The notes under the pieces are model-generated. The model had not been told where the DNA came from, did not search any database, and saw only the letters and a program-made list of their open reading frames with translations. The position numbers and the translations under genes were made by a program. Below are positions 1,290-62,892 of a stretch of 62,892 nucleotides of DNA, piece by piece. Position 1 is the first letter of the stretch, and each line of letters starts with the position of its first letter. Origin of the DNA: Ginglymostoma cirratum (taxonomy: Eukaryota); assembly GCA_024137785.1 (NCBI GenBank), contig JAHRHZ010000017.1:7600722-7663613 (forward strand). The letters are read 5' to 3'.

Positions 1290-1390
1290 AACAAAAACAA
1301 AGTTGCTGCAAAAGCGCAGCAGGTCTGACAGCATCTGTGAAGGAAAAAAATCAGAGTTAACGTTTCGGGTCCAGTGACCCTTCCTCAGAA
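1290..1390 (-). mobile_element. Short Penelope-pLTR-like element (subfamily A) inserted in the Rex1 copy
   Basis: Interrupts Rex1 RT; same sequence family as 5471-5687 and 52697-52911. Confidence 0.8.
1355..1390 (-). ncRNA. Minimal type I hammerhead ribozyme motif
   Basis: Minus strand tt-CTGAGGA-A-GGGTC-actg-GACCC-GAAAC-GTT-aact: intact core boxes, perfect 5-bp stem II and palindromic AACGTT in place of stem III. The 5' arm of stem I is truncated. Confidence 0.7.
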
Positions 1391-4300
1391 GTTTGTAGAA
1401 GTTTGGGAGGAACTTTATGGACATGTCAAATTTCCTGGCCACCTGAGGAAGAAGAGGCGTTGTTGTACCTTTTTACCGGCGCATCTACGTGGGAAGTCCA
1501 GGATAGGTTGTTGGTTATTGTCACTCCAAGGACAATGATGCTCTCCACTCTCTCAATCTCTGCTCCGTTGATGTAGATGGGGGTATGTTCTCCTCCTTTC
1601 TTTCTGAAGTCGATGATCAGTTCTTTAGTTTTGCCGACATTGAGAGGAGAAATTGTTCTCTTTGCACCACATCACCAAGCCCTCTATCTCCCTTCTGTAT
1701 TTTGACTCATCGTTGTTAGATATCCATCCCACTACAGTGGTATCATCAGTGAACTTGTAGATGGTATTTGTTTAGAACTTGGCAACACAGTCGTAGGTGT
1801 ATAGGGAGTACAGTTGGGCTGAGGGCGCATCCTTGGGGTGCTCCAGTGTTGAGTGTTATTGTTGAGGAAGAGTGGTTACCTATCTTCACTGATTGTGGTC
1901 CGTGGGATAGAAAGCTGAGGAGCCAGTTGTAAAGGGCAGAGCCGAGACCAAGGTCATGGAGTTTTGAGATCAGTCTGGAGGGGATCATGGTGTTGAAAGC
2001 GGAACTGTAGTTAATGAGCAGGAGTCTGACATAAGTGTCCTTGTTGTCCATATGTTTCAGGGATGATTGCAGGGTTATGTTATGGTAATAGGAAAATTGT
2101 AGGGGATCGAGGCAGGCTGGAAGACTGGAGTTGTTGTGGGCCATGACCAGCCTTTCGAAGCACCTCATGATTATTGAGGTCAGAGCCACTGGGCGGAAGT
2201 CATTAAGGCACATTGCGTGTGTGTTCTTAGGTACGGGGAAGATGGTGGTCTTGAAGCAGGTGGGGACTTCGGCTTGCAGGAGGGAGAGGCTGAAGATGTT
2301 GGTGAATACCTCCGCCAGTTGGTCTGAACAGGATCCGAGTGCTCGGCTGGGGACAGCATCCAAGCCCATCGCTTTCCTTGGGCTGACTCCCAGGAAGACC
2401 AATCTGATGTCTGCAGTGGTGACCAAGGGAACGGATGTGTCTGGGGCTGTCAGGGCAGGCATCACCGCGCCGCTAGCATTCTGCTCAAACTGAGCATAGA
2501 AAGCATTGAGCATGTCAGGGAGGGATGAAATGTGACATCAAACACTGCTACAAAACAGTACAGAACTAACGTATTCACTGATGCTCAATTTGGTTCCACC
2601 GAGGCAACTCAGCTTCTGACCTGATTAAAGCCTTTGTTTAAATGTGGATCAAACAGCTGAATTCCAAAGGTGAGGGGCAAGTGACCACCGTTGACATCAT
2701 GGCCACAATTGACTGAGTGTGGAACCAAACAGCGCCAGCAAAACCTGGAATCAATGAAGATTTTAGTGTGAACTCATACCTTTCAGAAAACAGACAACGT
2801 GATTTCTTATACTTCACACTTTTACTTCCATCAGAATCAATTTTTAATTCTATTGATTGGACTAGATTAAAATATAGAAAGACAGGTCCAAAGGCAAAAG
2901 GATAGTCAGCTAAAGAAATAGACCATGCGGTTCTCGTAAGCTAATTCTGAGAAAAAATAGATCAGTAAGATATTTTGCTAAACAGTTATTGCTGCATATA
3001 AACACACTGTCAAGCTCACCATGACAAATGAAAAAGGCAAATAAGTTAGTATAAAGGAATGCATACAAGATCTATCAATATGTTCAAGTCGTTGATTTTT
3101 AAGCATAAAATGTAATTGCTTTTAAATGAATCTAATAATATCTTACATAAGGAATTCACAGAGGTTTGAAGTTGGTTCAGATCTAAACTATTACACCACA
3201 TTGAAACTGAGTAAATAACATGGATCCGCTTATAAATATAAATATATTGTTTTGTTATGACAAACATAACTCGTGCTCCTTATCGTTAAATTTTCCCTTT
3301 ACCAACATTTTATACCAACACATATAATTTGAAATTTTATTATGTGTTCATTAACCATTGGAAAAATTAATATATAATACAAATGATAAACCAATTTCAA
3401 ATTCTTATTGCAATCTACCGACATAGTGCATATTACAACATTAATTATCTTTACAGCAGGCAAAGTAGCTAACATTGATACTAAGAGATTGCATTGCAAT
3501 GGCTAAGTAACTGTGACTCAATTTGACCCTTAATTACTCACAACATAAAACAACAGTCCTTAATAAGCAAAACACTAGTGTCTCCCTCAAGTGGTAGGAT
3601 TTGTCATGCGTAACTCACTCCAACAGCCACCTCCTGTATTGGCCTCAAGATATGAGCTAATTGGTTGCAGAAGAAGTCAGTCAAATTGGTATGACTAAGA
3701 GAGATTGTTCAACTTGAAAGTAGCACATGATTAACCTTTATATCTGGTTGCTATTTGTACTATAATTTAAATTTGGACCAAATGGGATAATGATTATAAA
3801 TATATGGTGACAGTATATAAAGCACACAATTATACTCTCATCTTCTAGCACCAAAGAAATATTTTGTATAATAAATACTTTTTGGGTGGTTCACTATAAT
3901 TAAATTGGAAACTCCTAAAGGCCAGTACTTCAATTCTGCAAGAGGTTTGATCAAGCTTTGAAGATATTGCCATTGTATACATCATAAATACTGTTTACTT
4001 ATAGGATAAAAAATGTGGCTAAACTGATTTTTTTTGTCTAGAAAGACTGCACATGTTAAATTAGTTCAAACCTATTTATTATGACTTTCACACATCCATT
4101 GACCTGGCAAGATGCAGCAGTCAGGTATTAAATTGTAGGTAACCAACATCTGCTAAACTAATAGTTGGCAGAATTATAGTGGTGTCAATGTAGACTAATT
4201 TTTCAATCTTTGTTTATTTGTAGTATGTTATTATCTTCGAATTCCACACTATGAGCAATTAGTGCTTCTACAAAACCAGCTGGTTTAAGCAGTTTTGATC

Positions 4301-5470
4301 AATAGAATTAAATAATATCAATGCATTTCACATTTTTCATACGTCAAAGTGTGAAATACATAGGGACAACAAAGCTGCAAAGCAATATTTACTATGGAAT
4401 CAGAAACACCAATGATCAGTTATGTTTGAGGGGAGAAAATAAACTGGTAAGGCACAAATCACAGTCGACATTAAATGCCATGATGATTCATATTAATGTA
4501 GAGCACTATGTGTGTGACCAATAGCAAACACTCTCTCAATGGCATATGTTCATTTTATCTTAAAGATGAGGCCTGTCTTGTTGGGTTTGAATCATAATAA
4601 AAATGTACTAACAATTAACAGCACCGTGTTTAGAACAAATCTATAATTATCCTGACCATGTTTAATCACACAAATCTTAAATGGAACATTTCCTGAATGC
4701 TAAGCCTGGAGTTTTAATCATATATAGGATATGGGCAGAGCTAGCAGATCAGTTTCTATCTATTGCCCATACTTAAATTGCCCTGAAAAAGGTAGTGGTG
4801 ATGTGCCTTCTTAAACAGCTGTGATCTGTGTAGACTGGATATTCCCAAAGTACTGTTATGGAAAGAGTTCTAGAATTTTGAAGCAATACTTCAGTAATAG
4901 ATCCAGAAAATGACGGGTACATATACAAACGATATGTATGCATAGCATATCTTAACATAAACATCAAAAATGACCCCATCTTGTTTTCTTTACTAATGTT
5001 GTTTAACTTGCTGAGTGTTCCAATCTTTCCCTATTAATATTTCAGATTTCCAGAACCTACAATACTCTGTGCCATGTCCTGAGAGAGTAGTTGCGTGGGA
5101 AATCTCACACACAAATTCCACGGAGAATTGTACTGCATGAGCTGTTGGAAAGTGATATCCAATTTACTTCTCCATTCACTTGCATTTTTTTATTTCTTTT
5201 ACAAGCAAATACATAATTTATTTTTGGAAGTTATAATTGATGTAATACTATATGAATAAATCACCATCTTCATTCAACATACTAGACAAGGTGGTGTTCC
5301 TTTACTGCTGCAAACTCCAAATAAATTCTGTGAATTATACAATGATTGCATACTATCAATAAAGAAATCTAGTACACAGAGGTTGTCTATCCGTGAAAGC
5401 TATATAAATATACTTTTGGTCCCTGTATTTCAAAACTCACCACAAGTTACAAACAGCAGAACATTTTATG

Positions 5471-5687
5471 CAAAAACCAAAAGAACTGCAGATGCTGTAA
5501 GTCAGAAACAAAAACAGAAGTTGCTGAAAAAGCTCAGCAGGTCTGGCAACATCTGTGAAGAAATATCACAGTTAGCATTCCTCAGTTCTGAGGAAGGGTC
5601 ACCAAATCCAAAACATTAACTCTGATTTCTCTCTGCAGATACTTCCAGACCTGCTGAGCTTTTCCAGCAAACTTCTGTTTTTGTTGG
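5471..5687. mobile_element. Fold-back Penelope-pLTR-like element with a central decayed hammerhead
   Basis: Arms aacaaaaacagaagttgctgaaaaagctcagcaggtctgg and ccagacctgctgagcttttccagcaaacttctgtttttgtt are inverted repeats. Centre is agtt-CTGAGGAAGGGTC..aaaacatt-aact. Imperfect TSD agaacattttatg (5458-5470) / agaagcttttatg (5688-5700). Confidence 0.8.
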
Positions 5688-6399
5688 AGAAGCTTTTATG
5701 TGCTTGTTATTGTAACACAAAATGGACAAAGTTGAAATTTGATACAAGACTCCGTACTCAAAAGTCACATCTGTATAGTCAACCTATTAGTTTGAAAACT
5801 GTGAAGAAAAAACTTGTATTGTGCCTTTGTGCCTAAAATTACTTCAGAAAATGAGGAATAGCAAGCATGTAAACAGGAGAGAATGCAAATTTTCTACATT
5901 CTGATCTTTCAATCTCAATCAGATGTCCAAACCTACAATGCAGTAATTTTCACAGAATGGTGGCTCAATTTAGTGAATGGCCACCTACAAGTTGGAATAT
6001 CTCAAGATCCTTTGCAGTCATGTTGTATTTTGTAAATCTGAAGCTTCTAACGTCAATCAGCAAAGTTTTTATTTCATCTATTTTAAGTAATGAAGGTTTC
6101 TGTTAGCATCAATTAGTGGAATACATCTGACCGATTGTGAGATGATTCTTTACCTAATCATATTACCCTTATAGCCAAAGTGCAAATACTTAACAACTTT
6201 CAATTATTCATCATTAATTCCAACCCATCGATTGCTTTGTTGAATACTGTAGTATGGCTTAATTGTAAATTTCAATGCTTAACTAGAATAACAATCTAAT
6301 TATCTAACACACAAATAGCCTGTACATTCTGATTTTGCGCATAATTGATAAAATTAAATCAAATTCAATTTTCTGATTTATTTAATGTTTCATCAGTTA

Positions 6400-6516
6400 C
6401 AGGCCTGAAATGTTAACTCTGTTTCTCAGTCCATTGGTGCTCCCCAACCTGCTGCACAGTTCCAGGGTTTTCGGTCCTTATTTCATATTTTCATCATCCA
6501 CTGTATTTTGCTTTTG
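6400..6516 (+). mobile_element. Older diverged copy of the Penelope-pLTR-like element (similar remnants at about 5005-5075, 6935-7060, 26015-26085, 51080-51125)
   Basis: cctgaaatgttaactctgtttctc..acctgctg..tatttcatattttcatcatccactgtattttgctttt follows the family pattern. Confidence 0.6.
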
Positions 6517-7679
6517 TTAACTGATATGATTAAATAATTGCAGATACTTTGGAAAAAGAACATTCTGAAAGATCTGCAATTGAGAAACAGCTCATTGAAA
6601 TATATATGTTGATGAAGATTGATTGACCTTTATCTTGATTAATTATGATTCAATGTCTACAAATCCTTTTGCAACTGTCAGTTGTATTAGATTCTTTGAA
6701 AATAGGTAATAATTTAATAGAGTACAAGTACAATTTATGGGCATGTTATTTCAGTACTTTTATAAAACTTGCATAGGAGTCAACAACAGATGTAAAATTT
6801 TAACAATTAAATCAAATCTTACCAAATAAATCAACCTGCTCAACAACAGAAACTTGCAATATTGCATCTAAAGGTCATCACCCATAACCACAGGGAGGAT
6901 CAGGCTTAAGGTTCAAAGATAGTAAAATAATCATGGAGCTGAAAGGTTAGCTCTCTAACTCTCTTATTCTCTCCACAGTTGCTGCCAGATCTGTTGACTA
7001 TTTCTAATAGTTTCTATTCTCATTTCAGATATACAGCATCTGTGGTGATTTACTTCTGTGCTTAAATTCATAGTTCCAAAGTGCATTTAAAGATATTTAA
7101 TAACACAAAATGTACATATGAATTAGAAGTAAGAGGAGACAATGAGCCCACTCTGCCACTCAATAAGATCATGGTTGCTCTAATTGTAGCCTCAAATCCG
7201 CATTACCAATTACCTTTGATAACATTTCACCACTTTGCTTAATAAGAATTTATCTACTTCTACCCTGAAAATATTCATAGACATTTCTTCCACCATCTTT
7301 TTCAGAAAGAGAGCTCCAAAGATTGATGACCCTCTCAAAGAAAAATAAAGTCACCTAATCTTTTATGTTTTTAAATTGGTGACTCTGGATTTTTAAACAG
7401 TGGCAGCTACTTCAAGATTTGCAACCCATTATATTCCTTTGTTTAGCATAGCAAATTGAATTTATCATGCAACCAACAAGCTGCATGTCTTCCCCAAGTG
7501 GGCATGGTAAGGTTTGAAGGGTGTGCAGTCAATTTCTCATCAAACTGCAGTTGGTGATAAACCTGGAGAACAGTCGTCGCAATCATTTCCCCTCTTTCTC
7601 GTGGTGGTGGAGGGATAAATTTGGCGTAGTATATCCCTGTCCAATTACTTTTTTTCCCTTTAATTGGGAGTATCAATAA

Positions 7680-7940
7680 AAACAAAGTACTGGGAATGCA
7701 GGAAATCTGATATAGAAACATAAGTTGCTGAAAACATTTAGCAGGCCAGGCAACAGCTATGGAGACAGGAAAGTTGACATTTTGGGTCAATTTGATCAGA
7801 ACCAGTTAAGTTAGAAACGTACTGGACTTTAAATAAGTAGAAGCCGGGAAAGGGTCAGAGGTCAAGAATAAAAGGCGAGCTCTGAGATAAAAGATAGAAA
7901 AGGATGATGTTGCAATGACTAAAGGAATAACAATGAGAAT
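7680..7940 (-). mobile_element. Older Penelope-like 3'/pLTR remnant
   Basis: gaatgcaggaaatctga..gttgctgaaaacatttagcaggccaggcaacagctatggaga..gttgacattttgggtc is the reverse complement of the family pattern. Confidence 0.55.
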
Positions 7941-7943
7941 GGG

Positions 7944-8024
7944 AGATAACACGGTGTGGGGCTGGATGAACACAGCAGGCCAAGCAGCATCATAGGAGCA
8001 GGAAAGCTTGACGTTTCGGGCCTG
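7944..8024 (-). mobile_element. Young subfamily B Penelope-pLTR-like element with the 3' half of the hammerhead
   Basis: Near-identical reverse complement of 46780-46858 (ggcccgaaacgtcaagctttcctgctcctatgatgctgcttggcctgctgtgttcatccagccccacacc..gttatct). Confidence 0.85.
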
Positions 8025-8883
8025 ATTGAGCCGCCTAAAGCCCATTTCCTTTTTCTTGCCAAGTTTAAGCATCGAGTTTAATCAAGTTTCGATTGGGGGA
8101 AAAAGTGCAGATTAACTTCGTCATCTGATAGCTCATCGCTATCCCCTTGTGACCAACTGCGTACAACGTTGAAACACAGCAGATAGTTCCAAGAGGAAGT
8201 AGTGGTACTGTTAATGAGCTTACACCACTTTAACCTACAATGGACAAAGGAATCGCGCCGTTCTCTTCGGTGCAAGGAGTTCAGACAGTAGAATCTGCAT
8301 TCCAGCTGAACCGAAATCAGTATATTGTACGTAACATTAACCTTCTCAAAAAGGGACGTTTCAGACTATTAATCATTTCTATCGGAGGCTGTAATTGGTT
8401 AGAATGCAGCAGTTCAGATATTTCTCATTTCAGAAACAAATACCCAATTTAGACCAACTGCACATCGAGTTAATGTCAGTAAGTTAACATTTAATTCAGC
8501 AAGAGAAAGCTTTTGCTGTCAAATATATGGGGCTGTACTCCGGGAAAATATAGAGATTTCCCTCCCGTTAAAGTTAAAACCTACCCTGTACGCTAGCCAT
8601 AGGAGTACACCGTTGTAAGAGGGCGTAGATTCAGCAAATAAAACCAGAAGATTAATGTCATCAATCTATTGGTCCATGTCCTTGAAAACTGATTTATCTT
8701 TGCCAGTTTACAAGATGCCTGCCAGCGAAGGTAGGGCAATCTGAAGAGCCGAAACAAATATGCCCACAGGTTCATTTCACCACCACTGTAAAAGTCGCCA
8801 TCGGCAACGTAGTAATAAGCAGTCAGAAATAGATTACCGACAGTCGCCATGGAATATTTAAAGCAAATAATGCAGTCGGTAGC

Positions 8884-13374: not shown

Positions 13375-13448
13375 CCTTTTTCTTTCTCTCTGTTCAGCTG
13401 GAGGTGCAGCAGCTATTAGGCGTGGGGGAGCTCCTGGAGATGCAACGA

Positions 13449-20351: not shown

Positions 20352-20446
20352 TGACATGATATAAAGTCATCGACCTGAAACGTCAGCTCCGTTCCTCTCT
20401 GCACAGACGCTGCCTGACCGGCTGGGTGTTTCTGTTTTGATTTCAA
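20352..20446 (+). mobile_element. Diverged Penelope-pLTR-like element
   Basis: aaagtcatcgacctgaaacgtcagctccgttcctctctgcacagacgctgcctgaccggctgg..tttctgttttgatttca. Confidence 0.6.
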
Positions 20447-22339
20447 TCACTTTACCAGCCCCTGTCATCTTGGCCGCTTATCCGCTTACGTGATTAACAA
20501 CGGAACCCGAAAGCCAACAGGAGGCGTACTTAGCAGGGTCTGTTTTCACGGAGCTGCTAGAGGAAGGCGCAGCGGTTACGCTGGGCTTAGCGATTCCGAT
20601 CAACCAACATACATCATAGATTCCTTACCGTTTTCCCAAATGCAACATAGAAACAATCTGCTCGATTCCGTACATTTATACACGTCGGCAAGAGTCATTC
20701 AGTTTGGCAAGGGATGAAATATTGCTGCGTCTTTGCTCACTGCGCGAGTTCATACCAAAATGATCATTTTAATCTAACAGCACTGAAACTGGAGTCGGAA
20801 CAGAATCTGATAGTTTCTGATTTTTTTTTCACGAGGGATTTCGCCCTTACCGGATACAATCTGCTCAGGCTGTGTTTTACTCTTCGTGTGAACCCATCAC
20901 ATTTCGCCATCCGCGATTTCTCTTCACAGATGCTGTCCGGAGTGTTATGTATTTCCAACATGTTCTATTTTTGTTCCAGTCCCTTCAGAGTCCTAGTCAA
21001 ACTACTGGTCATTCCTTTTTCTAAAAAAAATACATCATCTTTTTAATGTGTTCTCTACCTGTATAGCTGAAGTAGCAACTGTTCCAAAGAAAACCACTTA
21101 AGGGCACACATTGTAAAGGTCGAAACAGCAGTACACACTGTACAGTCAGATTTAGAATTAATTACCTTGAAAAGGAAAAGCACCAAATAATGGGACAAAG
21201 TCAGTTCCAGTTATGAAACATGACAAAATTGTATCGCTTAACAAACTCATACACAACATGCATGTAATGTGTCAGTGTTGCCAGCCACGTGGAGATTATT
21301 ACACTTTCTTTAACACGGCGTTCAACATTAGCGGCATAAGAGAGCAGTACTTTACATGTTAACACAGAGAAGCAAGTGCGCCAGAGATAACTCGCCTTCT
21401 ATCTTTCTATGTGTACCTTTCCCACCCGATCCTTGCTTGTTGAGGCCACCGGGCTGCGATCAGGCAAATGACTACTTCACACTATCTTCTTCCCTCTCCT
21501 CGAAGGACAGTATTAACATTAATATCCGACAGCAATTATTTTAGATTGTAATTTGGATTTGGGACAACGCGATTCTTCTCTTCTCGTCACCGATAGTTTC
21601 CGGCCAAACTACCAAAGTCGGTATGCTTACTACGTATTCACTTTAAATGTCTGAGTTGCTAAAGTGCCAAGATTTATGTCTATCCAGCTATTTATAATAT
21701 TAACAGAAACTTCTATGTTGAACTCAAATAATGCGAGTCATTTTGCATGCCAGATTCTACAGCACTTACTTTGTTCTAAGTATAGAGTGTTAAATATGGT
21801 ATTCGCAGTTAGATGTCATAGACTCCGGTTATGGAGAAACGTAGAGTCCCACATGAGAAGCAGCAGAATGTGCAATGTCTGAACAATCCACATGGTGAAT
21901 GGGCCGCAGTCACCTTTGCAGAAATCTCTCTCTCTACTTCTAACTTGGGAAACAAAGTCAGCAGCAAGTCAAATTGATCACAAGTTCAATCCGGGCATCT
22001 TCCTGATTCACTAACTACTCGTCTCTGCAGCCTTCCAGTCAATCACAAACAGACAGGACCCCGGGCTGTATGCTGACGGTCAGCCGGGAATTCAGAAATT
22101 ACTATTGGTTTCATGAAGGTTTTCACCCCACTACACTAATAGTCAATGTGGAACAGTTGCCGACGCTTTGGAAGAAAGTTCTAATTCATTTAGAGGTTTA
22201 AAAACCATCTCTGTCCTTTTTTTAAAAAGGAACCATGCATCCACGATAAAAAAAAATTAGGGATTGCTTTGGCGAATTTCAGGAGTGTATGAGACCTTCT
22301 CAGCAAGGTGTGACCGGAATAACAGCATATCTTTCGGTC

Positions 22340-25400: not shown

Positions 25401-27076
25401 TTCCACGTCATTGCTCAAATCAAGTGACTAAAACAGTTTTTCTTTTATCTAAGTCTAGTTCCTTTTAAAAGTTAAAGCTTTCTTTTACAAAAATATGTAG
25501 TTATCAAATCACTATGCAAAACAAAGATGTGAATTTCTTGATACTACATGGAGTTTTTGTGCCTCCTGATTAAAATGGTTATCTCAATGTAGTCAGTTTT
25601 ATATATTCCATCTGTGTTGCCTCTGCTTGTCAGCTTATAATAGCAGCCATTTTAGGTCAATATCTTCCCTTTTCAACATTATATTTAGTGATTTTTTTTA
25701 GTCTCGGATACTGCAAACAAATTATGGGCAATGAAATCACTACTCCACGTTTACCATTATCATGAGAAGGTATTTTGTTACATTTGTATTTATTTTTCCT
25801 AATTAAAACATCCACAATATAAATTCATACATCTAAAGTTAATACTGAAATGCTGTATGTCAATTGCAAGAACTGCAGCGATAAACTGCTAACATAGAGT
25901 CTGGGCACCAGGTAGTTCTGCACACCTAATTTTTTATCTGTCAAAGACAGTCTTGCCACCATATTAGTTATTTTCTGATACATTTTTAACCCTAGCTTCT
26001 TGTTTCTCGTAGATTCTATCAAATTGAGTGCTTCCTTTATCTTTACAGATTTCAGCATCTGCAGAAGTTTGCCTTCTGTTTTATTGTCTAGTTTGTATTA
26101 ACAGAATTATACATTGGTAATATTTGATAAAGATTGTATTGGTGTATGGCATAGTGACAAAAAAAGCACTGTTGCACAGAAGACAAGATAGCAATAGATG
26201 AGAAAGGCATTTCAGCCCAATAGATCAAAACCATTCAAAAAGTTAAATCTAAGTATTTCCCTTATTACGTGGGATTAGGAGATATGGAGGATCAAGAAGA
26301 TTTAGGCACTGTTACAACAATGGTAAACAAGAACTACCAATATTCAAATTCTGTCACTTGATTATAATATCCAAGAATTTCATGGATTAAAGTGAACTTT
26401 AAAAAGGACGAAGACTGATCAAAAATAGCTGCTGTACTCACCGGACCACACTTTGTGAAACCATGTCGGTACACAAATTCTGAATTTGCCGAAGTTACTA
26501 TTTCATCCAAAGATAGTGAAATCAGCCAATGAAGTAAACATCAAAACATTTGCACCTTTTGTCAAATAACACTTGCATGATAAGTTTGCATATTGGGAGA
26601 TAAAGTTTGATGGTGGAGCATTTTGCTTGGAAAAACAACAAGGCTGTACTCAAGAACGTGAAAATTAACCTAATATCAGTAGCTTGCTTGGTAGAGCAGA
26701 GTAAAAAAAATGAATTAATAACAACATGAAGCTAGAAGTCTCTCTCCCCCATCTTTCTTAACTTCAGAACAGCCCCTGATAAATAAGCAACTTATCATGA
26801 CATTCATTCACCAAGAAGTCAAGCACTATAAATTTCACCACTGCTGCAAAATATGAGTCAGCAGTTAGACAACTGGTTTCAGGTATAAAACCTAACATCT
26901 CCAAGACTCATAGGGTCTTTTTTAAAAAATGTGTAATCTATTCTTCCTGTACACATGAAACATCTTCTCCTTTTAAAAGTTATTATCTATGTTTGATGTC
27001 ATGTCTAGTATTACTTGGAATTAGAATTCAACAGCATTTCTTTTTCTTTCATTCAAGGAAACCTTAAAATTTGGCT

Positions 27077-27108
27077 TTCTGTGTTCATCCAGCTCCACAC
27101 CTTGTTAT
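27077..27108 (+). mobile_element. Very short (32 bp) 5'-truncated subfamily B insertion with 14-bp TSD
   Basis: ttctgtgttcatccagctccacaccttgttat flanked by cttaaaatttggct at 27063-27076 and 27109-27122. Confidence 0.85.
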
Positions 27109-29404
27109 CTTAAAATTTGGCTCCTTCATTTTAACCTAGTTAATTGTATCTCAATCGAAGCATGATAGCTAAACACTTAAAAAAAATGTTTTGTTGTCAC
27201 TTACCGAGAGAAATTAAAAAGAGGGAAACTAATTCTTCCTCCCACCTTGTTGTAAAATTATGCTCATGTACATAAGTCACCAATGGTTAGAGAAAAGGTA
27301 CAAAAGGTAACCAAAGAGATGAAAGGCATGTTGCTATTCATCTCAAAAGGTTTAAATTAAAAAAATGAGGAGTCATTTTATATTATTATCTGGATTATAA
27401 CTTTCAATTCTGGACATTGCACCTGTCAAAGATTTATTGACCTGGGAAGGATTACGGTACATATTTACTTGACTTTAAACTGTTGTAATACATGCAAACT
27501 TTGAGTAGAAGCCCATGCCAATGCCTGTAGATGAGAATTGGGCCTCATGCGTTTACAGACTAGGGTGATGTACCGATGGTTTGTCATGTACTTCCTTTAC
27601 ATCAGTGTCCATGTTTTGACCTAGGCTTTATTTCACTAACTGACTTTTAAGGAACATGAATCAATGCAATATTACCAGATTAATTAATCAATGTATTCAT
27701 ATCAAACTCCTTTGCTCACTATTGCAGAGGAGACATTAGCATACTTTTTAAAGTAGGGTTAATGTCTCAGTAAAAGTCATTAGCCAGAAAATAGCAAAGC
27801 TTTGACTCTAGATGAGTAGAAGTTTCTTGATCTCTGTAAAGTCAGTTCAAACATTTGGAAATTCACTTTAAATGATTGTGAAATAAAGTTTGAAGCAACT
27901 GATCAAAGCTGCCTTTCACAACATTAAAATGTTCATTCTGCTGGTAAGAGTTCACACTAGAATAGATTATGCATGCTTCATTAGCAAAGTTCACTGTCTA
28001 ACAGAATGACTTTATCTGCTGCTACTGGCAATTGCTAACCAATTGCAATGAACCAGATGAATAATGGGAAATTGCTTTATTATGGCACTCAGCATGCACA
28101 ATCCATTTTAATAAACCCAAGCCTCAAAATTCATTGTCCTGGAGAGATACAAAAACCAGACACTGGAGGTGATTGCACATTCATTGTTGCTTTAAACACC
28201 GGGCAGTATGGAGAAAGGAGTCAAGTCAAAAGAAGTAGTACAGTTATAACATTGGATGACTTGATATGCATGGAGAAGTTGACTTTATGTATCAGGGTCA
28301 AGTCACCTGGGTCATATGTAAATGAGGAACAGGTTGGACAATGGATAGATGGACAATGGATGGCTTTAGGGCTAGCTGAGGTGTTGTTTCGGAGCTGGGA
28401 AGAAAAGTAATTGTCAGAAATCCTCTGGCCACATTTGAATAGGTATATACAATTAAATGAAAGCATTCTTGGACCCTTCAACGAGTGACTCCAGAGTCAA
28501 TGAGATCTTATGGCCTCAGATCAGATAAAATAAAAGCAGCTTCCTGCTGACTGTGCATTTTCTAGTAAATCAGTACTACTGCAATTTTAAAAGCTCTTTT
28601 TTAGAAAATGCTAAGAGAAGCAGGTCCCCCAGGTGGAGGACTTCAATGCCTTCAAAACTGTCAATTATCCAGTGTATTAGACAGCCTCTCAGGGAATTTC
28701 TGCATCTTAGATATTTTTAAAGGGTCTACCCTAAACTTCATGTAACATGGCAGACATCTGACATTAGGACAATGTAGACAGCCAAATTATGTTGTTGCCT
28801 CAATGAACACTGTGACTGACTCTTAGACTTGGAGACAATAATAATAAATAGTACGTCAATAAGTACTTAGAATGAAGTTCTTTAAGCTCTAGGCATGATT
28901 AGGATATTATGCTGGTTGTCAGGATACTTGGGGGAGAGACATGCAGGATGTGTTGCAAGTTGTCACACTGCAGGTTAGCACATAATAAGATGAAGCTTTT
29001 CCTGTTGACTTATGGTTAAGTGTTTGGTGATGGACTGAGAAAGGCCGAGAGTGCTCAAAAATATTGAGGTTCTGGTCAATTCCAGTTTTCCTACCTGATG
29101 GTATCCATTGGAAAAGTGAAGAAATTATTGGCCATGTTTTTGCCTTAATGCAGACAGGCAAAGCTGTTTGATTGATGTTGCCAATGTTTCCTCCTGCCTG
29201 GAATGTCTTGAGGCACAAAAATTCAGGGCCACAATTACTATTGGAGAAACAGGCAAGGACAAATGTGACAACTACAGGGCTGCAGATTTTTTTGTTGAGA
29301 ATTGTTCAAAGGACATGATCATCTGGCAAAGTCAGAACCTATTTCTCATTACAAATTTCCCTAGAGTATGAGGTGGTGAGCTGCCTTTTTGAAGACTGCG
29401 ATTA

Positions 29405-46588: not shown

Positions 46589-46764
46589 GATGTAAAGATC
46601 TTCTCCCATCACAGTAGCTGCCACTTTTCTGCAGTAAAAAACTCAGCTTAAACCTGATGAAACCAATTAGGGCTTCAGGAATATTAGAGTTCAATTTATG
46701 ATGCACTGTGCCTGTGGATTGAATAATTAATCGTGTATTACACCACTCTGTCCAAATCTTTGAA

Positions 46765-46796
46765 CTGATGAAGGGTCAAGGCCCGAAACGTCAAGC
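46765..46796 (+). ncRNA. Minimal type I hammerhead ribozyme motif
   Basis: CTGATGA-A-GGGT-caag-GCCC-GAAAC-GTC-aagc: canonical core with a GUC cleavage triplet. The 5' arm of stem I is replaced by genomic flank. Confidence 0.7.
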
Positions 46797-46858
46797 TTTC
46801 CTGCTCCTATGATGCTGCTTGGCCTGCTGTGTTCATCCAGCCCCACACCTTGTTATCT
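46765..46858 (+). mobile_element. Young subfamily B Penelope-pLTR-like insertion with 12-bp TSD
   Basis: Flanked by atctttgaactg at 46756-46767 and 46855-46866; the repeats overlap the element ends by microhomology. Confidence 0.88.
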
Positions 46859-49531: not shown

Positions 49532-49931
49532 NNNNNNNNNNNNNNNNNNNNNNNNNNNNNNNNNNNNNNNNNNNNNNNNNNNNNNNNNNNNNNNNNNNNN
49601 NNNNNNNNNNNNNNNNNNNNNNNNNNNNNNNNNNNNNNNNNNNNNNNNNNNNNNNNNNNNNNNNNNNNNNNNNNNNNNNNNNNNNNNNNNNNNNNNNNNN
49701 NNNNNNNNNNNNNNNNNNNNNNNNNNNNNNNNNNNNNNNNNNNNNNNNNNNNNNNNNNNNNNNNNNNNNNNNNNNNNNNNNNNNNNNNNNNNNNNNNNNN
49801 NNNNNNNNNNNNNNNNNNNNNNNNNNNNNNNNNNNNNNNNNNNNNNNNNNNNNNNNNNNNNNNNNNNNNNNNNNNNNNNNNNNNNNNNNNNNNNNNNNNN
49901 NNNNNNNNNNNNNNNNNNNNNNNNNNNNNNN
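49532..49931. other. Assembly gap (400 N)
   Basis: Run of N. Confidence 1.
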
Positions 49932-49932
49932 T

Positions 49933-49998
49933 CAAGTTTTCCTGCTCCTATGATGCTGCTTGACCTGCTGTGTTCATCCAGCCCCATGCTTGTTATCT
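49933..49998 (+). mobile_element. Subfamily B Penelope-pLTR-like element abutting the gap
   Basis: caagttttcctgctcctatgatgctgcttgacctgctgtgttcatccagccccatgcttgttatct. Confidence 0.8.
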
Positions 49999-52696: not shown

Positions 52697-52911
52697 GCAA
52701 AAATGGAAATTGCTGGAGAAACTCATCAGGTTTGGGAATATCTGTGAAGAGAAAAGAGAGTTAACACCTCTAGTCCAGGAATACTTCTTCAGAACCAAAA
52801 TGAAAGTACTATTGCCTGAAGAAGTATCACTGGATTTAAAACATTGATTGTGTTTTCTCCCCACAGATGCTGCCAGACAAGCTGAATTTCTTCAGCAATT
52901 TTTGTTTTTGC
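52697..52911. mobile_element. Fold-back Penelope-pLTR-like element with two opposed decayed hammerhead cores
   Basis: Inverted arms aaattgctggagaaactca.. / ..gctgaatttcttcagcaattt. CTGAAGAA occurs on the minus strand (52785-52792) and the plus strand (52816-52823). Confidence 0.75.
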
Positions 52912-54770: not shown

Positions 54771-54925
54771 GAGATAGTAGGAACTGCCGATGCTGGAGCC
54801 TGAGATAACAAGGTGGGGAAAATTTTCTGAAGAAGGGTCCAGACCCGAAACGTCAGCTTTCCTGCTCCTCTGATGCTGCCTGGCCTGCTGTGTTCATCCA
54901 GCTCTACACCTTGTTATCTTATATG
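54771..54925 (+). mobile_element. Subfamily B element with partial inverted 5' arm and TSD
   Basis: agataacaaggtg (about 54803-54815) is the inverse of caccttgttatct (54907-54919). Flanked by agaacaaatg at 54761-54770 and 54926-54935. Confidence 0.85.
54823..54858 (+). ncRNA. Minimal type I hammerhead ribozyme motif
   Basis: tttt-CTGAAGA-A-GGGTC-ca-GACCC-GAAAC-GTC-agct: intact core and stem II. Confidence 0.72.
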
Positions 54926-56704
54926 AGAACAAATGTTTTGTATTTTGGTGGAATAATTGGGTTGCATTTGCAATAGACTTTTGGATCTAAATGCAATTGG
55001 TTTACTATCTTGCATGATACTCACTTCTAGTCCTTTTTGTATAGCCTAGGCTTCCAAGATTGTACTCTATATTGTGTTGTGGAATTGCAGGGTAGCGTTT
55101 TCTGATGACACCACTTCATTTGAGAGAAAGAAACAGATGGATGATCATCCCACCTTACATATGGCGCTCTTTCTTTAGGAGTGCTCTCAATACGGTTCTT
55201 TGTTGGAAAAGTTTAGAATGCTTGGGAACGCCACTAGCTGTCAATTCCCCTCCAAGCTATACACCATTCTGAGTTTGAATACGTCAATGCTCCTTCATTG
55301 TCACGAGGTAAATATCTTTGAACTCTATCCGTAATAGCACGGTTAGCGTACTTAACTCCAAGGACTTCATCAGTTTAAAGAGGCAGCTCATCACCTCTTC
55401 AGGGATATTTGGGGCTGGGTAATAAATGCTACACTCATATCTGATGAACAAATAAAATATACCTATTCCTCTCGAGATATCAGTTACCTTGAAAGCATGT
55501 ATCCAATTAATGGTAACAAATGTATTGTTTATATTACCCTTCATGATTTTATTGACTCCAGTTTGAGGGTGCATTTTAAAGAAAAACTCCATCTTGGAGC
55601 CATGTTACAGGCTTATACTCTCTTGATGTCCATCTGAGGAGTTTTTCATTAATCTATGAATGATCAGGCAGTTGATCAGCGCTAGCATATGCTGATAGGG
55701 CAGAGTGAAACAAAGCAGAGTTAAATCAGCATATTTTGAGCATACATATCAAGCAATTCCACATCTGTACATCGTGAGGAACAAATTATGAATATATTTT
55801 TGGTGTCTGTAGAATCAATTTTGTCGGAACAGGAAGGGAATTAGTTGTTGGAAATGTATCGGCTGTAACAATAACTGGTATAAAAATTGGAAAATTGCAT
55901 GGAAGCTTAAATGACAGCATTATGCATTCATTTTAATGCAACTAACTGCAACAGGTGGTATGTCTGCAAGTAGTGTAAAACCTACATGGAAAATTAGAAA
56001 AACTATATGAGGTTTAAATGAGCAGAAATGAAACCTGTGTAACTAATTGAAAAATCTACCTATAATTTAAACCTCAGGAACATTAAACCAGTTCTTTGCA
56101 CTGTAATGGGTTTCAGGCACAGGAGGTATCATGCGAGCTCTCAGTAGTTTATTAATGTACTCCGAGCAGGATAAAATACTATTTCTTCATTTTCAAATAC
56201 TTTTATATTAAAGAACTAGGGATTGATTTTAGCAGGAAAAGGAAATTGTAGAATGCAAATAACTTGTATCTCCCTTCCAGAAACCCTCAAGATCTTTGAA
56301 GCATAGGCCCTATATTACTTCATTTTAACTTCACAAATTCTGTAAAACTTCAATGAGGGAGACTGATGCAAAAGGTTTCACTTTTAATTCTGAATCTTTG
56401 TAGGCCCACTAGTACTTAGCCCTTTTATATTGTGGCACATTGAACTTTGATGTCCGAGATATTGTACAAATGCTGCTATAACTGTTTCCACATTTATTCA
56501 CAGGATGTGGACATTATTATTAAGGCCAGCATTAAATAATTTTAGAAGGTGGAATGGAATAAAACTGAATGAATTGAGGGTTCTTGTGGTGCAGTGACCC
56601 TCCATGTGAGCCAGGATGCTCATCCAAGTCCAATGTAATAACATTGCTGAACAGGCTGATTAGAAAATATTTACAACTGAATGATTTGATAAATTATTTC
56701 AAAG

Positions 56705-56915
56705 GATGCTTTGCTGTGGCTCTGGAGCTCAAATGACAGACTAGGTAAGGATGGTAGATTTTATTTTCTGATCGCCATTAGTCAAATAAATAGGTATCTT
56801 ACAACAATATGGTTATTTTGTTGTCAGAATTACTGATAGCAGCTTTTTATTCAAGAATTGATTTAATTAATTGATTTCAATTTCCCCAGCTACTGTGCAG
56901 GAGTTTGAAACCATA
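56705..56915 (-). mobile_element. SacSINE1/DeuSINE-like SINE fragment
   Basis: Reverse-complement similarity to 29520-29700 (ctaggtaaggatggtagatttt..cattagt). Confidence 0.55.
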
Positions 56916-56935
56916 CCTAAATACCATTAATCCAA

Positions 56936-57132
56936 TTGGGTCAGTTAGCTGGACAGCTCGTTTACATTGCAGGGTGATGCCAACAGCATGAGCTCAATTC
57001 CTGCACTTGTTGAGATTACTATGAAGGATTGTCTTTACCTCGTCCCTTGCCTGAGACATGGTGACCATGAGGCTACATCACCACTATGAGAGACCAGCCC
57101 TACTGCCCTCTGGGACTGTAGTAACTTTACCT
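56936..57132 (+). mobile_element. tRNA-derived SINE
   Basis: tcagttagctggacagc..gtgatgccaacagcatgagctcaattcctgcac head and actttacct tail; related to 22340-22460 and 50860-50970. Confidence 0.55.
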
Positions 57133-57612
57133 AATTGAATTAAACAATCATTATACTCTCATACCTTACTAAAAGTAGAATCTGGTATTTGTTGGACCAA
57201 TTGTTTTGGTGTAAAATATAGTCAGACTGTGTAAATTAAGCAGCAGAATTGCTGGTACCTAATCTGTACAGAGACTGGTCCCACTGCAATCTGGGAAGAG
57301 GGGACCTGCTAAGCAGCTAGATGTCAGCTTTCTTTTGTTATTATGTATTTGAATAAGCAGTAGGCCTAATACCTGTTAAAGAAAAATTAGGCACCTCACT
57401 AGTTCGGTAGACTTTGAGCATCCACTCAAAATTTTATTTAAGCCTATTATCATCACAAATCCTTCTTATGGAGTAAGAAATGGCAGGAGTATTTTCCACA
57501 CTCCGTGGGAAGTGTGTTCACTACCCCACCACTTTCAAGACTCGAGTAAGAACCACTGCCAAAATTGAGATCTCCTGTCAGGCCTTGTTGTAGAACACAA
57601 CTTTATCACTCC

Positions 57613-57797
57613 TGTTGATACCAAAAATAGCAGGTGCTGGAGTCAGAGTCAATACAGTATAGATCTGGAGGAACACAGCAGGTCAGGCAGCATCAGAAGA
57701 GCAGGAAAGTCGACTTCCTGATGAAGGGTGTAAACTTTCCTGCTCTTCTGATGTTGCCTGACCTGCTGTGCTCCTCCAGTTCCACACTGTATTGACT
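57613..57797. mobile_element. Fold-back Penelope-pLTR-like element (subfamily C) with 13-bp TSD
   Basis: Arms 57647-57710 and 57734-57797 are near-perfect inverted repeats. The loop retains CTGATGAAGGGT (57718-57729). TSD actttatcactcc at 57600-57612 and 57795-57807. Confidence 0.88.
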
Positions 57798-58910
57798 TTA
57801 TCACTCCCACCCCCTTCTGAGGATTTAGCTAAACTTTGAAAATCAATTTCTACTGATTTTTGAGCTGTTTCCTTTGAGTGTACATTGGCTTTTATGGGCA
57901 GCAGGAGCTCTGTCGTCCAATAAGAATGTTGGAAGAAACCTACGTTAGGGAGCCCTGATATGGTTTAAATTAATCACCACCAGTCAGGCCTCTCATCCCT
58001 TTAGGGAGTTAAATCTTGAGATCAAGAGTTGCTGGTCAATCAGAGATATGAAGCTGTACAACCTAGGATGTGCCTACAGGAATTGTGATCATTGCTAGTA
58101 CTACAGCTAGACCGCAGCAGCAATGGAGAGCATGCCTCAGAATTAAGCTAAGTATATTAGGCTCACCAGGACCATTCAGGCAAGCTCTAGTGAGGGAAGG
58201 AATGATAATCTTTGCTGCCAAGGGCCTGGTACATTCATCCTACTCCCAAACACACACACCAAGTCCGCGAGGCACTTGTTTGGATATACTTAATGGTGTT
58301 CCAAATGGTGAAATGTCCATCTCCGGTAGGAGACCTCCAGAGGTGGAAGCAAGAAGCCTTCAAGAGGTGATTTATGGGCCTCAATCATCCTCAGCCTATG
58401 GCATGCCACCTTTTTCATTGATGGCAAATGCCGTCAGCAGCTGAAATCTGACACACACTGAATGCTATACCATTCCATCCATTTTCTTTTAAATTATTCC
58501 TAAGAATCTGCAAAATCCCAATCAGTGTCTTTGCAATACTGATAAAAATCCAGTCCAAGATGGAATTTTTTAAGTTGTAGAAAAATATTTGACTTTAACT
58601 TACTTTAAACATTCCGTCTCTCTTTATTTATAACAAAAAGACATAGCAACATCACTCTTCATACCCAAGTCTTTTAACTTTGATAAAGTAGAAATACTCA
58701 CCTGATCTTATTTATTAAGACTGCCACTCATCTCACTGTGGCTCCTGATCAAAATTGACAAACATATGATTTCTCCATAATGTCACTCTTGACTATTTCC
58801 AAAACTCAACCCTCTCATACAACTTTCAATTCCTGGTCACATTGAGGCTTAAAATATGGCTGTTGGGGTGGGGAGAGGGGTTGAAACCCAAAGCATTATC
58901 AATTTATGAC

Positions 58911-59989: not shown

Positions 59990-62815
59990 TTTCTTCATAT
60001 GACAGACCTTTGCTGATGGGTGAACAGGCTAATTAGACATGTTCAGCTACAAGTGCCACAGATGAAGCTTGCCGTTGTCTTTTTGGGATTTTTTTCAGTG
60101 TTTTTGTTTGTTCCCAAGTCACTGTCGTGAATACTACTGTACATCAACTCACAAGAGGTGTCACCATTTCCCCTGATATATCTTCTGACTCCCAGATATA
60201 AGAATCAATGTTTGGCGCCTTCATGCGTGCAAACATCCTCGAAGTAGAGACTTCAGCAACCTACTGGTCATCTGGCTCTAGCTATTTCACTTTATAGCAA
60301 GTCCTTGGATATGTGACCTTCCTCTATTCTGCAGAATGTGCCCAAGCCAATGGAACTGAATAAAAAGAAGATTGATGGAAAATCTCAGCAGGTCTGGCAG
60401 CATCTATGGAGAGAATCAGAGTTAACCTATCGGATCAAGCGACCCTTCCTTTGTTTGAGTTCTCAAAAATTTGAGAGCTATGTCATTAAGAGGACAACTG
60501 CGTTTAGGATTTTGCCCTGTCATAATGCCGCACAGACAGCAAAGATGAAAATTGCTGATTTTTTTTTTCCTTATGGTAGTGGATTGACCATGAAGTCATA
60601 CAACAAGATTTTGTGAACATGGGGCTGAAAGACTATCAATTTGGCTCTAATGATGCTTGAAGTTGTTCTGTGTGCATTTCTGAGTTACCAAAGGTAGAGC
60701 TGCTATCCCCCAGCATATGTCTAGAACTGCTTCAAGCACAGGTTTTCTATCACTATTTGCCCAAGGTAGCAGAACCTCCTAACCACTTCCAATGAGGTAT
60801 TATTTAATGTGATCTGTGGTGGAGATGAAACACCTTATCCATGACCACTGTTCTTTTGATGTTTCTTGCCAAAAAGAAAAGTTTACAGGCATCGGTGAAA
60901 CAGTCCATACATCCTTGTAGCTGAGTTTTGCTGTGGACGATAGCATCATCAGCATAGAGTATTCAGCATTGATCTGAATGTGGTATGTTTTTTACTTCAT
61001 TTTCAGCCTCGATAGGGTTGTTTAGTTTTCTCTAACCATGTATATAGGCAGAATCCTTTCATTTTTGCAGGAAATGTAAAGGTCACAACCATGGTGAAGA
61101 AAATGCCAAATAGATTAATGTAAAACCCATACTGTTTCACCACGTTTTGACTCAGAAACTTAAAAGTGGAACAGTTAAACTGTGAAGTGCATGTTGTTAT
61201 CATGGAAAGAGATGATGAGGCTGAAGTGTTTTGACGGACAGTGAATATTTCCCCAAAGCTTGAGGAGTTCTGCTCCGTTGATTGTTTGAATGCCTAGTGA
61301 GATCTATGAAAATAAGTTAAAGAGATACATTCTATTTGGTAAATTCTCTTATAGATGGCATGCGAATATTATTTCAACATTATACCTGCCAGCATGGAAA
61401 CCCAGCTTTGTATTCAGGTAGATTTAGCTTGCAAGTGAATGGAGATTCTTAACTACGATTCTAGCAAGTCCTTCCCTGTGACATTAAGGAGTGAGATGCC
61501 CCTAGGGTTGTTACAGTGCCTTCTGTCATCCGTGTTTTGTATTAGTGTGATGATTTTTGTATTGTGCATCACCTCTGGAATGGAGCAAACTTTCCAGAAG
61601 AAGAGAAGGTCTTAAAGCAGTGGCAATAGATGGGGCTTTCCATATATTGACAATTCAGTGGTGATTTCATTCTTAATGTGTGTCCTTCGATTTGGTAAGC
61701 AGTCTATGGCATTCTCAAGCACAGTTGATGAAATTTCTTGATCTGTTTTTCCATGACAGGAAGCTGCAAGACAGTATCAGATGGTTACTGGGAGATGTCC
61801 ATCTTACCGGAGTACATCTCATTGGGCATTGGTTTACTTCTTTTGGTGAGTATTCCACTATCAGCCAAATTTATGGGCACAGCTTTGGAAATGATAAGAC
61901 CAAGCCATCTTTTGATCCCGTCATACATAGCTCATAGATTTATATGATGAGAGGCAGCTTAGATTTCTTGAAATAATGTGAATTACAGCGCCTCCCTTTC
62001 TTTTCTAAAGCTGTATTAGATACATTCATGTCATGCACCATTTTAATTGTTGGGTTTATATTTGCATCAAACCAATGTTTGGGGATCCACTGTTACCAGA
62101 TGATGTTTCTGCTGCTTCACACATGAATGCACTTGGTGACATCCAAGCTTCATTGAAACCAGCAATGAAGGTTTCCTCATAAACCTTTAGTGGGTAGCAA
62201 TACTTCCAGTGATGCAGAGTGCTGGTATGTGGCATTATTCCATGTGCAAGAGGTATTAATGCCTTGTGCAAATGTTTGGAAATTTAGATGTTTTAGGGGC
62301 ACTTCTTCATTCCACTGCTAAAAAGAGGATGGTTAGTGCCGCAATCTGTGCTATGACAGATGTTGATAAAGAGAAAATTGACCCAACTGCACCTTCTTGT
62401 GATGTCTAGGCCCAGTTTGTGCATATACCTAGATGATGCCATGATAGCTTGTGGCTATCTGCCTTAATAGAAGGCAATGTTGTTGGAGAGTCAGTTCAGG
62501 GTAGAAAACTCAAGGAGGAATCCTCCGCCATTATTGAGCTTGTCTAACCCATGATGACCGAGTATGATTAGCCATGAGTCGCTGTCAAGCCCACCGTATG
62601 CTCTGAAATAATCTAGAGCGAATAACCTGTTATCATTTGCAGTGTTTCTTAGAATATCACCTGTGTAGCAATAGAGATCTATTTGTTTGAAATGCTGGCA
62701 GACAGAATTGATGAATAGAGCCATAATTCTTTGCCAGAGGCAAATGAAAGAACCACTTGATAAAATCAAAATCAGCCCAATGTCTCATTTCACTTTAACC
62801 TTTAAGTCATTGCTA
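59990..62815 (-). mobile_element. Decayed RTE-clade LINE
   Basis: ORF 62769-62491 (LFALDYFRAYGGLDSDSW..LGHHGLDKLNNGGGFLLEF) resembles RTE endonuclease GDFNARVG..W..LG..G.G..N.NG..LLEF. 60220-60325 reads EGHISKDLL*SEIA..R*PVG...FEDVC, like RTE C-terminal DGRIPKDLLYGEL..R..GRP..FKDVC. Confidence 0.7.
60352..60450 (-). mobile_element. Subfamily A Penelope-pLTR-like element inserted in the RTE
   Basis: tggaaaatctcagcaggtctggcagcatctatggagagaatcagagttaacctatcggatcaagcgacccttcc. Confidence 0.75.
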
Positions 62816-62825
62816 TCAAGATAAT

Positions 62826-62892
62826 GTTACAGAACTAATCCAGGTGCTGAAGTACGATAACAAGCATGGGGCTGGATGACCACAGCAGGTCA
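62826..62892 (-). mobile_element. Subfamily B element, truncated by the window end
   Basis: caggtgctgaagtacgataacaagcatggggctggatgaccacagcaggtca is the reverse complement of the subfamily B 3' end plus tail. Confidence 0.75.

Follow-up and report, generated by a model that had tools for sequence, protein, structure and literature searches.

Hammerhead-bearing stubs in a Ginglymostoma cirratum contig, probable 5′-truncated pseudo-LTRs of Penelope-like elements

A dispersed repeat family of three subfamilies

The 62,892-nt window, by which we mean the whole stretch of DNA analysed, was searched with nhmmer using a profile of 11 seed arms. Nineteen related arms were found at 16 loci (E<0.01), 11 of them being the profile seeds themselves, and the reversed window, used as control, yielded 0 arms. 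The repeats occupy about 3% of the window (1,917/62,892 bases). About 15 related elements in three subfamilies (A, B and C) had been proposed in the initial annotation, and both the number and the grouping are borne out: identities are 65-84% among members of A and 84-97% among members of B, compared to 74-82% between B and C and 53-68% between A and B/C, which separates the groups. The proposed high copy number was supported as well, with an element depth in X3 of 5.6e6 versus 11-40 in unique flanks, a figure that marks a very abundant repeat and is not a copy number. The shark host suggested in that annotation is likewise supported. Two runs tentatively taken as RNA also contained element contigs, from which neither strand nor ends nor level can be read. 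Shark-specific patterns had 0 matches in viral contigs and 0 in metagenome contigs.

Family A includes a solo arm with an exact hammerhead core at 1290..1392 (-), with CUGA at 1388, a 5-bp stem II and the triplet GUU at 1361-1359. This arm sits in a LINE RT remnant, where tblastn shows the LINE protein cleanly interrupted by 33 inserted codons; a 7-nt duplication with one mismatch in its flanks (1400-1394 / 1291-1285) is by itself not beyond chance. At 5468..5685 lies a head-to-head pair, consisting of an inverted arm (-) with a tail (5468-5506) and a forward arm (+, 5584-5685) with a decayed core. Its fold-back centre is 2-4 nt 5′ of CUGA, and the tail scores 28.5 against a background 99th percentile of 23.5 (forward arm, 18). 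The second pair of this family (52697..52911; CUGA at 52792 (-) and 52816 (+), 23-nt spacer) has two decayed cores and no recognisable tail. The family further comprises an old tailed arm that has lost its core (6934..7050, +; nhmmer E 2e-6, tail score 36), an old 3′ fragment (20914..20975, +; E 0.004) and an arm with a decayed core found with the nhmmer profile (60358..60452, -). Other old arms are a tailed one (+, 6400-6515) adjoining a short opposite CUGAUGA piece (-, 6370-6396; together 6370..6515, E 3e-7), a tailed arm with a decayed core at 7690..7815 (-; E 1.6e-11), upstream of which a pyrimidine-rich stretch may be a longer pseudo-LTR piece, and an arm with a decayed core at 20358..20445 (+; E 2.8e-8), about 7 kb upstream of an LRR gene. 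The weak 17th locus (4983..5075, +; nhmmer E 0.17) is possibly a very old tailed arm, with a tail score of 22, above the 95th but below the 99th percentile of the background.

The family B solo arm at 46765..46858 (+) has an exact core and starts exactly at CUGA; it is devoid of the stem I 5′ arm and has a 4-bp stem II, GUC at 46790-46792 and an exact 12-bp target duplication (46756-46767 / 46855-46866). A second arm (7944..8026, -) starts inside stem II and is identical to 46779-46858 at 79/80 bases. At 27072..27110 (+) only the 39-nt 3′ end is present, within an exact 14-bp target duplication (27063-27076 / 27109-27122). Two further copies are incomplete, one cut by an assembly gap (49933..49998, +, nhmmer profile; N 49532-49931) and the other, a 3′ end, by the window edge (62855..62892, -; E 0.001). 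In the family B pair (54771..54919), a short inverted arm with a 32-nt tail (54771-54822, -) abuts a forward arm (54824-54919) that has an exact core, with CUGA at 54827 and GUC at 54852-54854; the flanking duplication is 10 bp (54761-54770 / 54926-54935). The family C pair (57613..57797) consists of a tailed inverted arm (-) starting at the GUC palindrome and a forward arm that begins at 57715 and has lost stem II, flanked by an exact 13-bp duplication (57600-57612 / 57795-57807).

The pairs at 52697, 54771 and 57613 are also found in organism A, a relative that is about 4% diverged, which indicates that most copies are old. With this, and with the A arms only 65-84% alike, the claimed recent activity is not supported for most copies; the nearly identical copies at 7944 and 46779 may, judged from their sequence, be the only young ones.

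Hammerhead cores and stems

Exact CUGANGA..GAAA cores are located at 1363-1388 (-), 46765-46788 (+) and 54827-54850 (+). Exactly these three places were matched by a strict descriptor (CUGANGA, at least 3 bp in stem II, GAAAN-NUH), compared to a mean of 0.065 expected from 200 order-2 Markov simulations, none of which gave more than one match. A loose core pattern is weak on its own, since it gave 13 matches versus 5.8 expected. The catalytic boxes (CUGANGA, GAAA and the NUH triplet) are exact in 3/19 arms, and the other 16 are decayed or truncated; the core decay in A copies consists of CpG-type changes. The cores match the published minimal hammerhead consensus CUGANGAH-G..C-GAAAN-palindrome-NUH, as given in the PMC4209133 supplement. 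Stem II of the three exact cores comprises 5, 4 and 4 bp and has the G10.1-C11.1 pair; A9 is followed by an extra base, and a palindrome replaces stem III (AACGUU in A, ACGU in B). When cofolded, two A strands pair via AACGUU and B prefers other pairings. With boxes, stem II and palindrome present, assignment to the minimal type I hammerhead class is supported.

The three cores had been described as intact. Their places and catalytic boxes were confirmed, but stem I has just 2, 0 and 2 contiguous pairs (1290..1392 being one of the arms with 2, the forward arm at 54824 the other). A 4-pair stem I arm persists in the decayed A copy at 5588, and in part in those at 52792 and 7800; among the published minimal hammerhead examples stem I is as short as 2 bp (PMC4209133). 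The 2-nt CA loop described for the core at 54827 cannot close, and the stem II loop is CCAG on a 4-bp stem. Covariation of the stems, whose absence in stem II had been named initially as one way to refute the claim, was not beyond shuffles among nine window copies (193-427 of 500 shuffles were as high), and an Rfam scan of the window gave no hammerhead family at E<=5. Rfam microRNA matches were set aside, as they are the palindrome of the family C pair and lie below the cut-off. Because tandem partners and most of stem I are missing, the window copies likely do not cleave in place.

Insertion anatomy and the link to Penelope-like elements

The copies have a short 3′ end in common, which follows the cleavage triplet by 65-69 nt, and a second end, the tail, lies 30-40 nt beyond it. 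Exact target duplications of 14, 12, 10 and 13 bp were found at 4/13 tested sites (a duplication score of at least 10 occurs in 0.3% of 1,979 random intervals); at the other 9/13 no duplication was beyond chance, and old copies were without any. In 3/4 of the head-to-head pairs the tail is only on the inverted arm, and one pair has no tail. No head-to-tail tandems were observed (0/17 window loci). The 5′ ends are variable, being inside stem II (8026), at GUC (57714), about 55 nt behind CUGA (27072) or in the last 20 nt (54822). However, where CUGA is kept, the 5′ junction is within 25 nt of it in 6/7 window insertions, versus 27/75 in the families of other animals. From organism A, 791 and 729 contigs reach beyond 54824 on the 5′ side, where they share a C-rich run, and thus longer copies exist; the loose-end positions in the organism A contigs match the ends of the window copy by construction and are not proof of a hot spot. 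A tRNA-derived SINE was considered and rejected: no Pol III head was found 5′ of the body by ARAGORN, which is insensitive to decayed heads, and the target duplication abuts CUGA at 46765.

As had been noted initially, the window contains no intact Penelope-like element (PLE) RT/GIY-YIG ORF. Except for one LINE RT, 0/269 frames matched Pfam, and 107 PLE proteins gave 0 tblastn matches. Gene models reading through family B had no PLE protein match (0/13), and no RT continuation of an ORF starting at the ribozyme was seen in these 13, a weak result from only 13 candidates. We also searched for the ribozyme box in contigs of other animals and obtained 122 loci. In 35/105 of those with enough flank, a same-strand PLE-protein match ends at most 600 nt upstream of the box. 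One of the 122 loci, L005, consists of an RT ORF flanked by one inverted and one direct copy, and its homologues carry RVT_1, PF26215 and in some cases GIY-YIG (PF01541). Stem I, which was absent from the search pattern, is at least 3 bp long in 99/124 of the other-animal copies, and swapped partners reach this length in 25%; its pairs are of several types, and it therefore covaries there. The insertion anatomy and the position of the box behind PLE ORFs support the proposed pseudo-LTR origin. The shark profiles had no match to the 122 loci outside the box, and the shark-PLE link consequently rests on box and anatomy. The shark element might belong to the Neptune clade, a guess prompted by the Zn-finger-like linker of L005.

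Minimal hammerheads in pseudo-LTRs of metazoan PLEs have been in print since 2014 (Cervera and de la Pena 2014, PMC4209133). The examples described there are alike in being type I, with CUGANGA plus one extra base, a G-C first pair of stem II, GAAAC-GUH and a palindrome in place of stem III, and in occurring as thousands of solo copies from truncated PLEs, with some opposite-strand pairs. The window copies differ from them in their short stem II (4-5 bp) and the loss of most of stem I, and the alignment in supplement file 2 (part 2) of that paper is without cartilaginous fish. PAc, the Poseidon of Anolis carolinensis (Frangieh et al. 2024, PMC11167929), likewise has two 3′ ends that differ by the length of one tail and follow the ribozyme at about 65-105 nt, and it inserts in AT-rich DNA. 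Its ORF starts at stem II, whereas the family B frame is open in one copy and no gene model runs into RT. Among the other-animal PLEs, L005, L020, L040 and L050 have the same 21 fixed bases of the box, and in L037, L044, L081 and L100 there are inverted and fold-back copies whose centre lies immediately 5′ of CUGA. They differ from the shark copies in that stem I and often the ORF end are kept, with no detectable homology outside the box.

Origin of the stubs and role of the ribozyme

Taken together, the roughly 17 insertions are very probably dead, 5′-truncated pseudo-LTR stubs of endonuclease-bearing PLEs, which makes them an ordinary case of a known kind, with copies that are likely inert. 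Truncation of an autonomous PLE at the 5′ side gives the structure seen here (PMC8557442, PMC11167929), while the initial annotation had proposed a retrozyme-like, non-autonomous system, a reading that is not supported, with 0/17 loci in tandem. The palindromic copies could instead be MITEs or microRNA-like hairpins with an incidental ribozyme likeness, as the four long inverted repeats and the Rfam microRNA matches (57674-57770, 43.8 bits, cut-off 75) might suggest, but this is hardly credible: the arms are unequal, with the tail on one, duplications vary from 10-14 bp, solo arms occur in both orientations with duplications of their own at 27072 and 46765, and in other animals the box is linked to PLE ORFs. 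Monomers shed by non-LTR retrozymes, i.e. tandem ribozyme repeats spreading through circular RNA, are a very improbable source. Such elements are also non-coding, ribozyme-bearing and related to PLE pseudo-LTRs, and are reported in the one chondrichthyan sampled (bioRxiv 10.64898/2026.07.22.740005); moreover, 29 (X3) and 2 (X10) contigs of organism A join the B end to the B start, so that some head-to-tail units may exist there. However, non-LTR retrozymes are defined by head-to-tail units with a ribozyme in each; as no window copy is in tandem, these are not retrozymes as defined. In addition, the copies start elsewhere than at the cleavage site, unlike a cut or circular monomer, and inverted pairs with a one-sided tail are marks of PLE insertion.

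It is also improbable, though less so, that the arms are a separate SINE-like mini-element of about 100 nt, which would start at the ribozyme, be transcribed as such and be re-mobilised in trans by a PLE protein. The junction clustering near CUGA would fit, as would the family B gene models, 13/13 of which have no more than four proline-rich codons before the core and 3/13 an inverted arm directly upstream. On the other hand, the 5′ ends vary, some copies in organism A extend further upstream, and no tRNA gene or head was found (ARAGORN, insensitive to decayed heads). Since the stubs are without stem I, no end could be set by the ribozyme that they carry.

For truncated PLE stubs, a pathway can be drawn from the PAc work (PMC11167929). 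The PLE's own RT/GIY-YIG protein would have copied the stubs from a master that is likely elsewhere in the genome. It would make a staggered cut in AT-rich DNA and use both cut strands as primers for reverse transcription, which would begin at two internal RNA sites and give the short end and the tail end. The cDNAs would usually reach a length of about 100 nt and halt at the ribozyme or a little beyond it, so that one arm would result in a solo stub and two joined arms in an inverted pair. The hammerhead in these stubs would be passive cargo, and that of the master would cut after GUH, acting with the help of protein as a dimer held by the ACGU/AACGUU palindrome.

The junction clustering possibly reflects a ribozyme-linked stop of reverse transcription. 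A bolder version, which we regard as rather unlikely, is that the folded, protein-bound hammerhead serves as stop and joining point, with cDNA halting at its 5′ edge (stem I), skipping stem II or annealing at the palindromes. Equally doubtful is the corollary that the PLE would thereby programmatically shed very many ribozyme-headed stubs of about 100 nt, together with fold-back pairs. As to what the PLE hammerhead does, mutating the ribozyme left PAc insertion in vitro unaffected (PMC11167929).

The shark families found here extend the hammerhead class described in 2014. Their importance would go beyond that only if 5′ junctions truly cluster at the ribozyme edge. Were the PLE hammerhead to act as stop and joining point, it would shape insertions, rather than or besides cutting RNA. 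In a family of very high copy number with mappable junctions this role would be testable by counting alone, and the shark genome would offer tens of thousands of junctions for that count.

Repeat arms and their insertion sites

Self-BLAST together with a profile built from 11 arms recovered 19 arms at E<0.01 over 16 loci, 8 of them outside the seed, and the same profile, applied to the reversed window, found no arm. A 17th, weak locus lies at 4983; the motif and inspection by eye revealed two short arms in opposite orientation, 54771-54822 and 6370-6396. The dispersed repeats seen in the initial annotation are real and total about 1.9 kb, or 3% of the window. Their subfamilies A, B and C can be aligned across the entire body, with identities of 65-84% within A, 84-97% within B, 74-82% between B and C and 53-68% between A and B or C. 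Two very old arms, 20358-20445 and 20914-20975 (both +), lie in CpG-rich sequence, some 7 kb upstream of an intact 911-codon frame for a leucine-rich-repeat membrane protein (10750-13485, -), which is presumably SLITRK3-like and whose exact sequence is absent from the protein collection searched. Arm 20358-20445 retains its CpGs, so this locus may be unmethylated or regulatory DNA. A 400-N assembly gap (49532-49931) runs right up to a family B arm; where inverted or tandem structures of Penelope-like elements (PLEs) break assemblies, such a gap would be expected.

The 3' end is common to all arms, at 65-69 nt behind the cleavage triplet; the 5' ends vary. Exact flanking duplications of 14, 12, 10 and 13 bp were found at 27072, 46765, 54771 and 57613, respectively; a duplication score of this size occurred in 0.3% of 1,979 random intervals, and scores at the remaining nine of the 13 sites tested did not rise above chance. 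The insertion at 1290-1392 splits a broken LINE reverse transcriptase (RT) remnant (RVT_1; 992-2537, -) cleanly by 33 codons. Homologues of this remnant in fish and sharks carry PF00078 and PF09004, and we take it to be Rex/Babar-like. Fragments of another LINE, 67-74% alike and presumably CR1-like, lie at 270-500, 49049-49500 and 51576-52491, and a 43-nt direct repeat (22994-23036 and 23647-23688; 91% alike, 650 nt apart) is unrelated to the element.

Head-to-head pairs were observed at four loci. At 5468, 54771 and 57613 a tail of 30-40 nt past the short end is present on the inverted arm but absent from the forward arm, and the pair at 52697 lacks it altogether. Four old solo arms are tailed as well, and similarity among the A, B and C tails exceeds background. 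In truncation, inverted copy and one-ended tail the window loci match the PLE signature of PMC8557442, namely strong 5' truncation, an inverted copy that is likewise 5'-truncated, and a tail of 30-40 bp that is often one-ended. PMC11167929 explains such structures by RT starting at two internal positions and by cutting and extension of both target strands.

Minimal hammerhead cores

The three cores initially reported as intact, at 1355-1390 (-), 46765-46796 (+) and 54823-54858 (+), were confirmed in position. A loose core pattern gave 13 matches against 5.8 expected, whereas a strict descriptor (paired stem II and NUH triplet) returned exactly these three, where 200 Markov simulations averaged 0.065. 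An Rfam search of the window matched no hammerhead model; the cores agree with the minimal hammerhead consensus of Cervera and de la Peña (PMC4209133). Stem II has 5, 4 and 4 bp in the three exact copies, with loops of 4 nt. In these copies stem I, which joins the bases directly preceding CUGA to those directly following GUH, is reduced to 2, 0 and 2 contiguous pairs, because the insertion begins at, or a few bases from, CUGA. In predicted folds stem II is retained and CUGA pairs with the 3' side instead. Covariation of pairs among nine window copies does not exceed that of shuffles, and the boxes of A copies were lost through CpG-type changes.

Stem II is missing in three arms of fold-back loci, 5560-5587 (-), 6370-6396 (-) and 57718-57735 (+), each time by a deletion with short direct repeats of the core on either side, which is what an RT skipping a hairpin would give.

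Published minimal hammerheads show no activity as monomers and only weak activity as dimers (PMC4209133 and the review PMC6765202), and the ribozyme of PAc, the Poseidon PLE of Anolis carolinensis, requires its protein. The ribozyme copies in the window have no tandem partner. Given these properties, they are likely inert.

CUGA is retained in seven window insertions, six of which begin no more than 25 nt from it (1388, 5588, 46765, 52792/52816, 54827 and 57718); the exception, at 7800, is seemingly longer. In families of other animals this applies to 27 of 75 (75 of 124 rows, omitting those with fewer than two partners or under 150 nt of flank and the duplicate L111, with three fold-back values assigned by hand). 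The contrast (binomial p about 0.01) is post hoc and across species, and the clustering at CUGA is only suggestive. Copy starts do not coincide with the cleavage site, except for the inverted arm at 57714. We found no publication on such a 5'-junction hot spot in a search outside most subscription papers and Dfam/Repbase.

Association with PLE reading frames

As initially noted, no PLE ORF is present in the window: 269 frames of at least 55 aa gave a single Pfam match, to the LINE RT, and tblastn of 107 PLE proteins gave none. The box pattern alone was found in at least 123 stretches of metagenome contigs (at least 122 loci). At one of these, L005, an RT frame is flanked by an inverted and a direct copy, and RVT_1 and PF26215 occur in its homologues, some of which also have GIY-YIG. 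Among the matches listed, 35 of the 105 boxes with at least 250 nt upstream have a same-strand PLE-protein match ending within 600 nt upstream, nearly all within 147 nt. Stem I, which was outside the search pattern, has at least 3 bp in 99 of 124 listed matches, with several pair types, compared to 25% for swapped partners. An inverted arm lies upstream of 23 of 113 listed boxes, a count to which a pair contributes both of its arms and in which one locus appears in duplicate. At L037 1643-1721, L044 3477-3563, L081 and L100, also in other animals, the centre of the fold-back pair is a short, imperfect palindrome lying 10-15 nt 5' of CUGA. L090, a GC-rich contig of bacterial appearance, has the same box with good stems; the hairpin after it may be a true stem III.

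In sharks, the ORF of a PLE generally stops a few hundred bases ahead of a ribozyme of this kind. The shark profiles matched the listed other-animal loci nowhere outside the box, and none of 13 gene models reading through family B continues into RT; the shark-PLE link thus rests on the box, the anatomy and this ORF position. Family B, open in one frame through ribozyme and body at 54827-54919 (+), is frequently incorporated into shark gene models (13 detected, one of them a named ZNHIT3 isoform). It is translated within two Stegostoma tigrinum models, P0160 and P0189, the former identical at 22 of 23 residues and reaching into the tail; this favours a shark as host of the window. All 13 have at most four proline-rich codons before the core, and three are immediately preceded by an inverted arm. 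Both features may reflect selection by gene prediction, and the inclusion of family B in these models is likely an annotation artefact.

Abundance, age and classification

Contigs of four runs were aligned at 85% likeness to 52560-58160, a stretch that excludes the near-identical pair 7944/46779. For organism A, a relative, 97,628 (run X3) and 74,139 (run X10) contigs aligned. Summed depth at the B copy reached 5.6e6 and 6.2e6, respectively, against 5-45 in unique flanks; the B copy is a very abundant repeat there, although depth gives no copy number. Another abundant repeat lies at 56487-57047 (depth 3,800-5,600). Contigs extending 5' of 54824 (791 in X3, 729 in X10) gave a consensus of low overall agreement (0.35-0.37) ending in a C-rich run, and longer copies exist alongside many short ones. 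The B end is joined back to the B start in 29 (X3) and 2 (X10) contigs, and some tandem units of family B may exist in organism A.

Such tandem units would be in keeping with the retrozyme reading of the initial annotation. None of the window's loci is a head-to-tail tandem, however, and its copies are not retrozymes as defined in bioRxiv 10.64898/2026.07.22.740005, whose supplements catalogue chondrichthyan retrozyme families. The suggestion of recent activity was likewise not supported for most copies. Single-copy contigs of organism A differ from the window by about 4% (77/1,911) and extend from flanking sequence into each of the three inverted insertions of 52560-58160, indicating that these predate the split from organism A. 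Expansion of PLEs in the introns of the whale shark has been reported (10.1101/443036). The elements are very probably truncated PLE ends with minimal hammerheads, a known kind, and the copies in the window are mostly old.
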